Shown here: positions 18,466 to 22,029 of the stretch, in pieces
Layout of the letters: every line of letters begins with the position of its first letter
Numbering within the stretch: the first letter of the stretch is position 1
Assembly: GCA_965660855.1 (NCBI GenBank)
Contig: CBFIBM010000001.1
Coordinates: forward strand, 160,001 to 224,000
Source: an uncultured bacterium
Lineage (GTDB): Bacteria; Fidelibacterota; Marinisomatia; Marinisomatales; UBA1611
Length of the DNA stretch: 64,000 nucleotides
Direction of reading: 5' to 3'
The notes under the pieces: model-generated
What the model saw: only the letters and a program-made list of their open reading frames with translations
The model's database searches: none
Told to the model about the DNA's origin: nothing
Translations under genes and position numbers: made by a program

Positions 18466-18984
18466 TTGAAAAACATACTTTTAATTTTTTTCATATTTTT
18501 ATCACTGATAAATGCAGAATCGACATTCGATAAATTTAAGCATGAGGAAATTATTAAAGTAATTTTAACTGATTATTTTAAGAATGTGGATGAAAAGAAT
18601 ATTGAAGGTATACTAGATCATTTAACGTCTGAGCTTATCATGAATTTTGGTTCAGATGGAGTTACTCGTATTAAATCGAAAACAGAATTTTACCCTATTT
18701 TTGAATCCTGGAGCAAATCTAGTAAGGGTCAATTTAGTTTTACAAGGATTGATTCTATTAACATTCAAGAAACTCATATTGTAAAAAATTATACTGCTGT
18801 AGCAGATGTTACATATACTAGAATGGATAAAAATGGAAATCCTATCCGAACAGAAAGGTCTTTATATCACTTTGTGCGTGGTACAGGCTATTACGGTAAG
18901 CCATTGAAATTCATTTGGGAAGTGATGATAAAATGGCTAAGGCCTTGGAAGATTTATATGATTTCCAATATAGCATTAGATTGA
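18466..18984 (+). CDS. Exported NTF2/SnoaL-like fold protein, copy A
   Basis: Signal peptide; DYFKNVDEKN...ADVTYTR...SLYHFV...WKIYM; clear paralog of 19644..20114. Fold assignment is by pattern only. Confidence 0.75.
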   Translation: MKNILLIFFIFLSLINAESTFDKFKHEEIIKVILTDYFKNVDEKNIEGILDHLTSELIMNFGSDGVTRIKSKTEFYPIFESWSKSSKGQFSFTRIDSINIQETHIVKNYTAVADVTYTRMDKNGNPIRTERSLYHFVRGTGYYGKPLKFIWEVMIKWLRPWKIYMISNIALD

Positions 18985-18991
18985 AAACATT

Positions 18992-19567
18992 TTAAAAATC
19001 TATTTTAAGAGCCCTATCTTCATTATTAATGTTATCTTTTTTAATATATGAAAAAGATTTATGCTTGATTTGTTCCTTATCAAAATATTCTGTTAATTTT
19101 CTTAAATATAAGTCCTCCATTCCTTCTTCGTATCCAGATTCTTTGTGAATTATTTTACCTTGTTTATCTATTAATAAAAAAGTTGGGTAACCTATAACTT
19201 TAAACTGTTTTGCAATTTTTGAAGAAGGGTCAACAGCAACATCAAACTTATATTTTCTCTTTTTTATATATGGCCTGACTTGATTAATGATATTAGGTTT
19301 ATTAACATTTACAGCAAGAACTGTTAATCCTGCATCTTTAAATTCTTTATTTAGCTGATTTAAATAGCCTAACTGGCGTTCACAATATGTTCACCATGTA
19401 GTCCAAAAATTAATAATCATCGGACCATCTGAATGAAAATCAGAAAGCTTTGCGTACTCTCCATCTACCATTCGAATTCTGGAGTTTCCAATCTTTTTTC
19501 CTTGAAGGATTATTGGTGAGAGGAGGTAGGATAGAAGTAGTATGGGTATAAATAACTTATTTTTCAT
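18992..19567 (-). CDS. Predicted selenoprotein: TlpA/ResA-like thioredoxin-fold oxidoreductase with a U-T-Y-C motif, 191 aa, copy A
   Basis: Manual translation: MKNKLFIPILLLSYLLSPIILQGKKIGNSRIRMVDGEYAKLSDFHSDGPMIINFWTTW-TGA-TYCERQLGYLNQLNKEFKDAGLTVLAVNVN...FDVAVDPSSKIAKQFKVIGYPTFLLIDKQGKIIHKESGY...KIDF-TAA. Single in-frame TGA at 19391-19393 (codon 59). Confidence 0.9.
19361..19393 (-). promoter_or_regulatory. UGA plus candidate bacterial SECIS element, copy A
   Basis: mRNA UGA-ACAUAUUG-UGAA-C-GCC-AGUUA-GGC-UA-UUUA. The apical loop starts 16 nt after the UGA and has GU at loop positions 2-3. Confidence 0.7.
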
Positions 19568-19643
19568 GTACCTAATTTTATGATAATCAAATGTAAATAT
19601 TAAATAAAATTTTCCAAATTTTTTTCTTAAATTGGATTAAAAA

Positions 19644-20114
19644 TTGAACCTTATGAAAACTCATATTATATTATTTTTAACTTTTTGCATTAATCATAAT
19701 TTTATTTTTGGAATTGATAAACCGAAGGATGATAAAAAAATTATCAGTTCATCCCTTATAGATTATTTTTCTAAAGTTGACGAAAAAAATCTTGAAAGCA
19801 TGTTAAATTATATTGAATTACCTTTTATTTTAAACTTTGAATCAAAAGAACCACTCCATCTAAAAAATGAAGACGAATTCTTTGAGGTATTTGAACTTTG
19901 GAGCAAGTCTGAGAAAGCAAATTTCTTAAAAACTGTATTAGATTCTGTATCTTACACTGAAATTCATAAGGATTTTATGTGGGTTGGGGATGTTACCTAC
20001 TCTAGAGTAAATATAAAAAGTGGGATTAAAGAGACAAATAGATCACTTTATTATTTTGTGAAGAAGAAACATGACTGGAAGATTTATATGGTAAGCAGTG
20101 TTGATTTTGATTAA
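19644..20114 (+). CDS. Exported NTF2/SnoaL-like fold protein, copy B (likely start ATG 19653)
   Basis: Signal peptide; DYFSKVDEKN...GDVTYSR...SLYYFV...WKIYM; paralog of 18466..18984. Confidence 0.75.
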   Translation: MNLMKTHIILFLTFCINHNFIFGIDKPKDDKKIISSSLIDYFSKVDEKNLESMLNYIELPFILNFESKEPLHLKNEDEFFEVFELWSKSEKANFLKTVLDSVSYTEIHKDFMWVGDVTYSRVNIKSGIKETNRSLYYFVKKKHDWKIYMVSSVDFD

Positions 20115-20133
20115 AAAATAATTAGTAGTGTTT

Positions 20134-20700
20134 TTAAAAGTCTATATTAATTGCTTCTTTTTTGTTATCATTCTTTCTCTCATATTCAAAAGCTTCATAT
20201 TCGATATTCTCATTGGTAAAGTAAGATTTGAGAGCTTCTAAATATTCTTCTTCCGTACCATCTCCATAACCTGCACTTTTATGTATTACTTCGCCATTTT
20301 TGTCTATAAGATAAAATGTAGGGTAACCTTTTACATCAAATTGTTTGGCTAATTTAGAAGTTGGATCCAAGGATACATCAAATTTATACTTTCTTTTATT
20401 TATGTATGGCCTTACTTGATTTACTATTTGAGGTTTATTTGAATTGATGGTAAGAACTTTTAAACCAGTCTTACTAAATTTTGAATTAATTTGATCTAAA
20501 TAGCCTAACTGGCGTTCACAATTTGGTCACCACGTTGTCCAGAAATTAATGATCATTGGCCCATCTTGGTTAAAGTCAGACAACTTTGCATATTCTCCGT
20601 TTAACATTTTGATCCTTGCAGTGGGAATTTTATTGTCCTTAAGTGCAAGGCCAACAAAAAAAGACAGGAATACTAATGAAGAAAGAATATGTTTTTTCAT
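20134..20700 (-). CDS. Predicted selenoprotein: TlpA/ResA-like thioredoxin-fold oxidoreductase with a U-P-N-C motif, 188 aa, copy B
   Basis: Manual translation: MKKHILSSLVFLSFFVGLALKDNKIPTARIKMLNGEYAKLSDFNQDGPMIINFWTTW-TGA-PNCERQLGYLDQINSKFSKTGLKVLTINSN...LDPTSKLAKQFDVKGYPTFYLIDKNG...NIDF-TAA. TGA at 20527-20529 (codon 58). The ORF track shows only the last 78 aa. Confidence 0.9.
20497..20529 (-). promoter_or_regulatory. UGA plus candidate bacterial SECIS element, copy B
   Basis: mRNA UGA-CCAAAUUG-UGAA-C-GCC-AGUUA-GGC-UA-UUUA. Positions 20497-20522 are identical to 19361-19386. Confidence 0.7.
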
Positions 20701-20820
20701 AATTAATGTTAAAATTATAATTTTAATCTTTAAAAATTACTATAAAATCATTTTAAATATAACTTTATTTCTTGTAAATAAATAATGGAAGAGAATACTT
20801 TTTAATCATTAATATTATAG

Positions 20821-22029
20821 ATGGATTTGTGTATCAGTCTAATCAGAAATATTGTAAAGCATAATATACTAGCTTTACTGTTTATTATAATGCACGATCA
20901 AACCTTTGGATGTCGTTTATGGTCAATTTGTACTAAAAATAATAAAAGTATTTCTCAATTGCCATATGAAGAAAAAGACTTGGTTTATAATCAATTAAAC
21001 TCATTTTTTTTACAATCAAATATGATGAATAATGGATGGTCGTTATTAGACTATCCTGATAGTACATCTAATTTTATAACACCGATAATTAGATCTGAAA
21101 CCAAAGCTTATATTGATTCAGTACGATATTGGGCAGTAGTAGACTCTTTATTACTCAATGGTTCTGGTAAAATTGGAATGGGGCATTTACGACTTGCCTC
21201 TTCTGGAATTAATAGTATCCCAAATCCACATCCTTGGATGTTTTATAGAAACCAAAAATCTTACGCAATGATGCATAATGGAACTATTGATAAAAACGTA
21301 TTATACAATCTTATTACAAACAATGGCTCCGATATCACTTGGTTGCAAAATCACGAGCCGGAAACTTTTGATGGTTCTGATTGGCAGAGTGATGGTTGGG
21401 TTCAGGTGGTTGATTCAGAATTACTAATGCTTTTTATCATGCAGCAAGTTGAAAATGAAAATGATATATATTTAGGACTACAATTAGCACTTTCAAATTT
21501 GATGTCTCAAGGGGTTGTGGCTCATCAATTAAATTTAATTCTTTCCGATGGGAGCTTTCTTTACTGTTTTGGTGGTAGCAATGGTCTCTCTTATGCGGAA
21601 TCTTCTGATCATTATGCTGTTATGACGCAGCCTGAAAACAGTGGTCTATTAACTTGGACTGGATTAAATAATGGTGAGTTAGTAGTTATCAGTGATAATG
21701 GTTTAGAAAAATATCCAGATTTTATACAATTAGCCAATCAAGATGGTGTCCTCATACCTCGAAATCCTATTATTATGACACCAGCATTTCCTAATCCATT
21801 TAATAGTTCTTTACAGTTCTCATTTGAAAATATTCAAGATACCCCAATTATAAATATATCTATATACAATATACTTGGAAATCTTGTTGATACCATATCT
21901 AAAGAAAATATTAGAGAAAATGATTTCATTAGATGGAGTCCGCCCTTGGGAACAGCATCTGGAACCTATTATATACATGCAAAAATTAAGAATTCTAAAT
22001 TAAATCAGAAGATTTTGTTTATAAAATGA
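20821..22029 (+). CDS. Class II glutamine amidotransferase-like (EgtC/YafJ-type Ntn hydrolase) with N-terminal leader and C-terminal sorting domain
   Basis: CRLW, NGW, GHLRLASSG, NPHPW, MHNGTI, DSE; C-terminal AFPNPFN...ASGTYY...QKILFIK. Confidence 0.8.
   Translation: MDLCISLIRNIVKHNILALLFIIMHDQTFGCRLWSICTKNNKSISQLPYEEKDLVYNQLNSFFLQSNMMNNGWSLLDYPDSTSNFITPIIRSETKAYIDSVRYWAVVDSLLLNGSGKIGMGHLRLASSGINSIPNPHPWMFYRNQKSYAMMHNGTIDKNVLYNLITNNGSDITWLQNHEPETFDGSDWQSDGWVQVVDSELLMLFIMQQVENENDIYLGLQLALSNLMSQGVVAHQLNLILSDGSFLYCFGGSNGLSYAESSDHYAVMTQPENSGLLTWTGLNNGELVVISDNGLEKYPDFIQLANQDGVLIPRNPIIMTPAFPNPFNSSLQFSFENIQDTPIINISIYNILGNLVDTISKENIRENDFIRWSPPLGTASGTYYIHAKIKNSKLNQKILFIK

Follow-up and report, generated by a model that had tools for sequence, protein, structure and literature searches.

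Two neighbouring genes of a Marinisomatales bacterium with UGA at an active-site cysteine are probable selenoproteins of ResA/TlpA-like fold

Introduction

Does an in-frame UGA at the catalytic cysteine of a thioredoxin-fold gene encode selenocysteine (Sec), or does it mark a gene that is dead or read with another code? The question is raised by two genes, here called U1 and U2, that lie close together in a 64,000-nucleotide stretch of DNA from an uncultured marine bacterium of the order Marinisomatales, in Marinimicrobia (SAR406) (the window; positions 160,001 to 224,000 of contig CBFIBM010000001.1, assembly GCA_965660855.1). The original prediction, made from the letters of the window, described both as full-length paralogous genes of 191 and 188 amino acids for TlpA-like proteins and read them as Sec enzymes rather than as two pseudogenes. 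The genome assembly (2.09 Mb in 81 contigs, 84% complete, 31% G+C) and those of its relatives, designated below by G numbers, allow this to be examined. We conclude that U1 and U2 are very probably genuine selenoprotein genes, in which Sec would be inserted in a SelB- and hairpin-dependent manner, whose products would be exported U-x-x-C reductases of the ResA/TlpA type, and whose Sec codon would have a single origin.

Results

Two intact genes, each with one UGA at the active site

With the TGA read through, U1 and U2 are uninterrupted open reading frames (ORFs) on the minus strand (Table 1), and the ORFs together with their Pfam matches bear out the coordinates, lengths and motifs first proposed. 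Each gene contains a single in-frame TGA, which on that strand coincides, as had been claimed, with the codon for the first Cys of W-C-x-x-C; the read-through contexts are FWTTWUTYCERQLGYL in U1 and FWTTWUPNCERQLGYL in U2. Three Pfam families match both proteins above cut-off: AhpC-TSA (85.8 bits for U1 and 80.5 bits for U2, cut-off 26), Thioredoxin_8 (PF13905; 49.2 and 54.4 bits, cut-off 27) and Redoxin (74.8 bits for U1, gathering cut-off). The Pfam alignments run across the TGA, covering residues 34–141 of U1 and 23–140 of U2, and the cis-Pro loop GYPTF lies downstream of it, with P128 invariant across 35 aligned sequences. Similarity on both sides of the codon, part of the original description, is thus borne out.

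UGA alternates with cysteine codons across relatives

A six-frame search of 60 relatives added 11 genes from 10 genomes, at 47–63% identity, each with a single internal TGA and no other stop or frameshift. In this first set of 34 homologous ORFs the active-site column is TGA in 13 and TGT or TGC (TGY) in 17, the other four having dropped out of the count when the parser did not locate their active-site motif. Adding a family search over 54 genomes brought the count to 15 TGA and 27 TGY among 42 genes, which is the alternation at this column that the original prediction had suggested looking for. Sec forms occur in 13 of the 54 genomes and in 6 of the 15 genera of the family; a tandem pair like that in the window is also present in G024. 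TGA occupies the same column in 15/15 members of the Sec clade, and the 27 TGY homologues all have Cys there. That TGA recurs at this column in another 13 genes, from 12 genomes besides this one, is more than chance.

In a maximum-likelihood tree, which took in 41 of the 42 rows and gives no firm branching order inside the Sec clade, a branch with 100/100 support separates the 15 Sec forms from the rest, and a single change between Cys and Sec therefore suffices. Wider sampling added little. The 4-kb flanks of 74 htpG loci yielded only 3 Sec forms and the family search only 2 new Sec genes, which kept the sample for covariation analysis small; a related-locus search with the protein gave distant Cys homologues only, at no more than 37% identity.

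The stretch downstream of the UGA is, judged by its substitution pattern, under purifying selection. G004 and G030, the only pair of Sec forms not saturated there, differ with a dS of 0.35 and a dN of 0.023 (omega 0.065); all other pairs are saturated downstream of the UGA, with pN/pS of 0.08–0.51. Variation between strains has the same character. At least 14 public runs contain this stretch. Both UGA codons are spanned unchanged by contigs of three metatranscriptome libraries, belonging to three studies; elsewhere in U1 and U2 these contigs depart from the window at 14 positions (10 synonymous, 4 non-synonymous), of which 7 synonymous and 3 non-synonymous ones lie after the UGA. These contigs, although from RNA libraries, do not prove transcription, and they leave positions 19604–19667, between U1 and its neighbour A2, uncovered. 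The estimate of dN/dS past the TGA proposed with the original prediction accordingly comes out as purifying, and TGT or TGC at the two sites, named there as grounds for abandoning it, does not appear: independent assemblies and the contigs of all three libraries have TGA.

Selenocysteine machinery and the reading of UGA elsewhere

Genes for all four components of the Sec pathway, selA, selB, selC and selD, which the original prediction had recommended searching for, are present in the genome, each above its curated cut-off. tRNA-Sec scores 63.3 bits with Rfam (cut-off 47) and is called SeC with anticodon tca by ARAGORN. SelA (422.9 bits) and SelB (303.4 bits, cut-off 242) adjoin each other on contig 16, and SelD (388.9 bits) itself carries one in-frame TGA. 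SelA was found in 58 of the 61 genomes of a sample of the order. Sec use is therefore the rule in this lineage, and co-occurrence of SelA with the Sec forms is for the same reason uninformative.

Outside such genes TGA behaves as an ordinary stop, as had been maintained from panB, ispG and others. Among ORFs of at least 200 amino acids it terminates 11 of the 35 in the window and, genome-wide, 221 of 1252. Beyond these TGA-terminated long ORFs the next in-frame TAA or TAG follows after a median of 6 codons, and the TGA-ended panB, ispG and rsmE products reach the ends of their NCBIfam profiles (265/267, 612/613 and 239/240). Release factor 2 (RF2) is encoded (512 bits), and the sole tRNA with anticodon UCA found by Rfam and ARAGORN is tRNA-Sec. 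The RF2 gene usually carries a +1 frameshift at an in-frame UGA; the prfB match in this genome (L056) keeps to one frame, which contains one TAA, and shows no such frameshift.

A candidate SECIS hairpin

In bacteria the selenocysteine insertion sequence (SECIS) is described, in the part of PMC1088965 available, as a stem-loop that directly follows the UGA and whose small apical loop includes a G. An alignment of 13 Sec genes reveals a helix between columns 19–25 and 31–37, closed by a loop AGUUR, and its location at +10 to +28 agrees with that description. In U1 and U2 the helix consists of three G-C pairs (GCC/GGC), a 2x2 internal loop, and then an A-U and a G-U pair. Across the alignment 91% of 78 cells are paired, as against 22–53% when the 3′ partners are slid by one to three columns.

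Three of the six pairs show double, compensatory changes: G-C becomes C-G in the two window genes and U-A in G024b and G018, and A-U becomes G-C in G004 and G030. The covariation score was reached by 0 of 500 shuffles, and RNAalifold predicts the same helix. The Gln codon at +6, which supplies the closing C and the A-G of the loop, is CAG in 15/15 Sec forms and variable in the Cys forms. The hairpin emerged only from cross-genome comparison, folding of single sequences doing no better than shuffles. At E values up to 10, an Rfam scan of positions 18800–20900 returned no SECIS family, its three matches being chance snoRNA-like ones.

The 25 nucleotides over the hairpin (TTGTGAACGCCAGTTAGGCTATTTA; 19369–19393 in U1, 20505–20529 in U2) are identical in the two genes. 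The flanking codons differ at synonymous sites, and outside these 25 nucleotides the genes are synonymously saturated and encode proteins 57% identical. The identity could reflect a shared constraint from SelB or a short tract of gene conversion.

Small hairpins recur elsewhere in the genome. Nine candidate Sec codons of the genome are followed by a G+C-rich mini-hairpin that starts 16–18 nucleotides from the U of the UGA. A stricter hairpin pattern, a criterion set post hoc with the sequences already seen, is found at 6 of the 9, U1 and U2 included, and at 194 of the 85,856 TGA trinucleotides of the genome (0.23%).

Fold, family and predicted location

A profile built from 35 sequences identifies ResA (4nmu, 1e-29), Chlorobium DsbE (3gl3, 3e-26), 1st9 (2.5e-25) and TlpA (1jfu, 7e-16) as relatives, along with CcmG. 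The AlphaFold2 model of U1 has a mean predicted local distance difference test score (pLDDT) of 86.4, with residues 30–170 above 90 and the last ~20 residues low; a helix spanning residues 60–75 starts directly after U59. Foldseek searches with this model return ResA, DsbE, CcmG, Etrx and TlpA at target template modelling scores (TM-scores) of 0.6–0.89, and with a probability of 1.00 for ResA, DsbE, CcmG and TlpA. ResA is matched at 6e-14, and the top ResA and DsbE matches reach target TM-scores of 0.83–0.89, the highest being that of DsbE 3gl3.

No NCBIfam equivalog cut-off is reached (ResA NF002854, 95.7 against 170; TlpA NF047696, 50.4 against 230; DsbE TIGR00385, 45.2 against 123), nor is that of the selenoprotein models WAxxUGC_long (38.9 against 300), redoxin_TUGYCR (24.7 against 100) and SelL_rel_redox (20 against 120). 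Because all these cut-offs lie above the scores, U1 and U2 are ResA/TlpA-like by fold and superfamily and are members of no named equivalog. The earlier label 'TlpA-like' stands to the same extent: it holds for fold and superfamily, in which ResA, DsbE, CcmG and TlpA are the top matches, and does not extend to an equivalog.

The active site of the Sec forms, FWTTWU-P-x-C, differs from the FWATWC-x-P-C of the nearest Cys forms, as does the cis-Pro loop (GYPT versus LMPT). A hydrophobic N-terminus is shared by U1, U2 and the majority of the 35 aligned homologues; the Sec row of G032 starts without such a segment. The genome also encodes a DsbD/CcdA-type membrane module (DsbD_TM, 79.2 bits), and with it a role as reductases outside the cytoplasm becomes plausible. 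At the other end of the protein, tails of ~40 residues finish in a conserved Phi-x-Phi-D-F, present in 15/15 Sec forms and in the nearest Cys forms and missing from more distant homologues. The only other ORFs of at least 100 amino acids in the genome with this ending encode three large proteins with signal-like N-termini that resemble outer-membrane barrels.

Gene neighbourhood and further candidate selenoproteins

Each Sec gene converges with a gene on the plus strand, U1 with A1 and U2 with A2 (Table 1). The products of A1 and A2 are weakly SnoaL/NTF2-like (SnoaL_3 at E 0.058, which does not reach the cut-off). The ESM Atlas clusters nearest to them are those of DUF6841 (score 0.95, to be taken as a lead only), and they have no cysteine outside the N-terminal hydrophobic segment. 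An A-like gene stands beside the Sec form in 10/10 related loci as against 0/21 loci of Cys forms; A1 and A2 are no more than candidate partners of U1 and U2. The gene order htpG, yaaA, A, U is conserved among close relatives. We saw no cytochrome c or copper-assembly gene context around U1 and U2.

The genome appears to hold several more exported UxxC selenoproteins. L227, L228, L229, L231 and L232 each carry one in-frame TGA (Table 1) and a small hairpin 16–18 nucleotides from it. A further candidate, L230, is a 406-residue protein with TGA at the first Cys of CxxC (GHFYUGTC) and with Lamin-tail and type IX secretion system (T9SS) sorting domains; it resembles U1 and U2 in its thioredoxin fold and in the placement of the TGA, but belongs to a different family.

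Table 1. Positions of U1, U2 and associated features (window positions, or contig and position for loci elsewhere in the genome)
Feature	Position	Strand	Description
Selenoprotein gene U1	18992..19567	−	191 aa; active site W-U-T-Y-C; predicted exported ResA/TlpA-like thioredoxin-fold protein; uninterrupted when TGA is translated
Sec codon (UGA) of U1	19391..19393	−	codon 59; plus strand reads TCA
Proposed SECIS hairpin of U1	19363..19381	−	nt +10 to +28 after UGA; core GCC-AGUUA-GGC at +14 to +24
C-terminal tail of U1	18992–19120	−	~40 residues; pLDDT <50 at residues 179–190
Selenoprotein gene U2	20134..20700	−	188 aa; active site W-U-P-N-C; U1 paralogue
Sec codon (UGA) of U2	20527..20529	−	codon 58; plus strand reads TCA
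Proposed SECIS hairpin of U2	20499..20517	−	25 nt identical to U1 (see text)
C-terminal tail of U2	20134–20260	−	~40 residues
Neighbour A1	18466..18978	+	170 aa; hydrophobic N-terminus; convergent with U1, 13-nt gap
Neighbour A2	19644..20114	+	156 aa; A1 paralogue (35% identity); hydrophobic N-terminus; convergent with U2, 19-nt gap
Peroxide stress protein YaaA	17682–18455		336 bits; immediately upstream of the A1/U1 pair
402-aa protein	20821–22029		weak glutamine-amidotransferase/EgtC-like region; T9SS type A sorting domain TIGR04183, 35.7 bits (cut-off 23); TGA-ended
tRNA-Sec	C25:5796–5888
DsbD_TM gene	C2:60707–61384
prfB (RF2) match L056	G000:C1:80274–81317
L227	C1:123926–124756		FATWUGGC; Pfam thioredoxin-fold match spans TGA
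L228	C1:258098–259228		LLUPYC; Omp28 match downstream only, below cut-off
L229	C1:269016–269906		FTSWUPSC; Pfam thioredoxin-fold match spans TGA
L231	C5:42298–43326		ETDWUTWC; Pfam thioredoxin-fold match spans TGA
L232	C5:19659–20849		DPCGUKK (CxU); no Pfam match

Discussion

Taken as selenoprotein genes, U1 and U2 would work as follows. A short hairpin starting 13 nucleotides past the UGA, with its G+C core and loop AGUUA, would recruit SelB with GTP and Sec-tRNA(Sec), and Sec would be inserted in place of termination at both UGA codons. The full-length products would combine a hydrophobic N-terminal signal or anchor with a thioredoxin fold of the ResA/TlpA/DsbE type, and their redox centre would be U-x-x-C, with Sec at the position of the attacking N-terminal Cys. 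The most likely role of such proteins is that of thiol-disulfide (selenenylsulfide) reductases outside the cytoplasm, kept reduced through the DsbD/CcdA-type membrane electron carrier of the genome. The Sec form would have arisen once from a Cys ancestor within a Marinimicrobia family and is present here as a tandem pair.

Several observations weigh against this account, most of them concerning the hairpin. The 60 nucleotides after each UGA, folded alone, are no stabler than shuffles (z 0.39 and 0.32). The window hairpins are very small, with three G-C pairs, and position 22–34 is a C.U mismatch in both. The compensatory changes amount to about three independent events among kin, which makes the covariation support real but modest. 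At codons +3 to +10 synonymous variation shows no reduction relative to the Cys-form control (0.43 versus 0.45). In G032 and G067 the consensus helix is not matched (2 mismatches), and a shifted 7-bp hairpin seems to be used in its place. SelA was not found in G030, a carrier of the Sec form whose assembly is 77% complete, and was found as fragments only in G018. Export is suggested by the hydrophobic N-termini and by the extracytoplasmic location of relatives, and U1 has no clear cleavage site. More generally, the data show the genes and their fold, the conserved UGA, the Sec machinery, purifying selection and the covarying hairpin, whereas Sec insertion by read-through, export, the direction of electron flow and any substrates are inferred.

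The alternative that survives best accepts Sec and disputes the function: U1 and U2 would be real Sec proteins acting as peroxidases or other selenol enzymes and not as ResA/TlpA-type disulfide reductases. We consider this unlikely. Their best Pfam family is indeed AhpC-TSA, and at 8 of the 10 related loci yaaA sits shortly upstream of the genes; that synteny is confined to close relatives, however, and the best matches in sequence and in fold are ResA, DsbE, TlpA and CcmG, not peroxiredoxins. The spacing of U-x-x-C and the cis-Pro loop are likewise thioredoxin-like. Peroxiredoxins have the motif PxxxTxxC/U with the peroxidatic residue, whereas the Sec forms combine T at −3 with no Pro at −7 (I-N-F-W-T-T-W-U) and so have only part of it. 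Their T-x-x-U (FWTTWU, against FWATWC in the Cys forms) nevertheless recalls the TxxU of Sec peroxiredoxins in the portion of PMC2398784 available.

A related suggestion, which we regard as distinctly doubtful, is that the Sec clade and its NTF2-like (DUF6841-like) neighbour make up an envelope selenoenzyme module specific to SAR406, performing for instance peroxide or selenenic-acid chemistry while docked at the outer membrane by the tail. On this view the Sec clade would be more than a housekeeping ResA/TlpA with Cys exchanged for Sec, given the coordinated A-to-T change at −3, replacement of x-P by P-x and new GYPT loop, the disordered tail whose Phi-x-Phi-D-F end resembles that of outer-membrane proteins, the predicted exported NTF2-like gene at every locus examined and the place downstream of yaaA.

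That U1 and U2 are instead two pseudogenes, inactivated by a nonsense mutation at the active-site Cys codon of both paralogues, is very improbable. TGT or TGC is a single-base step from TGA, and public gene calls do split genes of this type into fragments of ~58 and ~116–126 amino acids. Decay is difficult to reconcile, however, with a TGA kept in 15 genes from 13 genomes and 6 genera unaccompanied by another stop or frameshift, with purifying selection past it and with the Sec machinery in the genome. Together with the covarying hairpin, these observations support the original preference for Sec enzymes over pseudogenes.

A code in which UGA means Trp or Gly (codes 4 or 25), genome-wide or by context, would give W-W-x-x-C or W-G-x-x-C and would suit the full-length versions with W at the site that metagenome callers produced, yet its probability is negligible in a genome with RF2, with 221 long ORFs ending in TGA, with panB, ispG and rsmE stopping at their profile ends, with tRNA-Sec as the only UCA-anticodon tRNA, and with Cys at this column in all 27 TGY homologues. 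The W-containing entries make up 14 of the 17 proteins of the family fetched from public databases, the remaining 3 being shorter calls that start past the TGA site. All of them come from contigs of 6.2 kb or less, and their W is best read as a miscall under translation table 4.

We therefore return to U1 and U2 as selenoproteins. Every database entry of the family looked at is unnamed. Standard annotation splits these genes or applies the wrong code to them, and the redox capacity of SAR406 is under-counted because databases store them in pieces or with W in the active site. U1 and U2 are real genes that lack annotation, and they are nothing unusual in a lineage with wide use of Sec; as an example they are clean and well supported, with a very small SECIS hairpin, and they change no concept. 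The further exported UxxC selenoproteins that this genome appears to encode fit the heavy use of Sec in thioredoxin-fold proteins reported for surface-ocean bacteria in the available part of PMC2398784. A text search of the literature on selenoproteins with Marinimicrobia or SAR406 listed no paper on U1 and U2; PMC5029168, in the section available, has SAR406 single-cell genomes in a table only.

Comparison with known systems

The closest solved relatives of U1 and U2 are Bacillus ResA, DsbE/CcmG and TlpA, with which they share the N-terminal hydrophobic segment, W-C/U-x-x-C, the cis-Pro loop and target TM-scores of 0.81–0.89. They differ in having Sec for the first Cys, a dipeptide P-x or T-Y in place of x-P, and an extra tail of ~40 residues.

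Among predicted selenoproteins the nearest counterparts come from marine metagenomes, and we compared them by description as far as the available parts of the sources go. Table 3 of the Sargasso Sea study (PMC1088965, 2005) lists a 'Prx-like protein' with 21 sequences and a 'Thiol-disulfide isomerase-like protein' with 4, while Table 2 of the Global Ocean Sampling (GOS) study (PMC2398784, 2008) lists 'Prx-like 1' (pfam00578, UxxC) with 225 Sec and 2,740 Cys sequences, and also 'Trx-like 1'. The reviews PMC9312934 and PMC13188914 tabulate a 'Prx-like thiol:disulfide oxidoreductase' and the 'Thiol-disulfide isomerase-like protein', giving the domain of the latter as pfam13905 / cd02966 TlpA-like.

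With the 'Prx-like thiol:disulfide oxidoreductase' or GOS 'Prx-like 1', U1 and U2 share the AhpC-TSA match, a UxxC with Sec first and a marine bacterial origin; against that description, the Sec clade is marked by FWTTWUPxC, by a tail that closes with [IV]DF and by a tandem pair beside an NTF2-like gene. With the Sargasso 'Thiol-disulfide isomerase-like protein' they share the Thioredoxin_8 match, UxxC and marine origin. Matched in this way by description, U1 and U2 belong to a kind of UxxC selenoprotein already predicted from marine metagenomes in 2005 and 2008.

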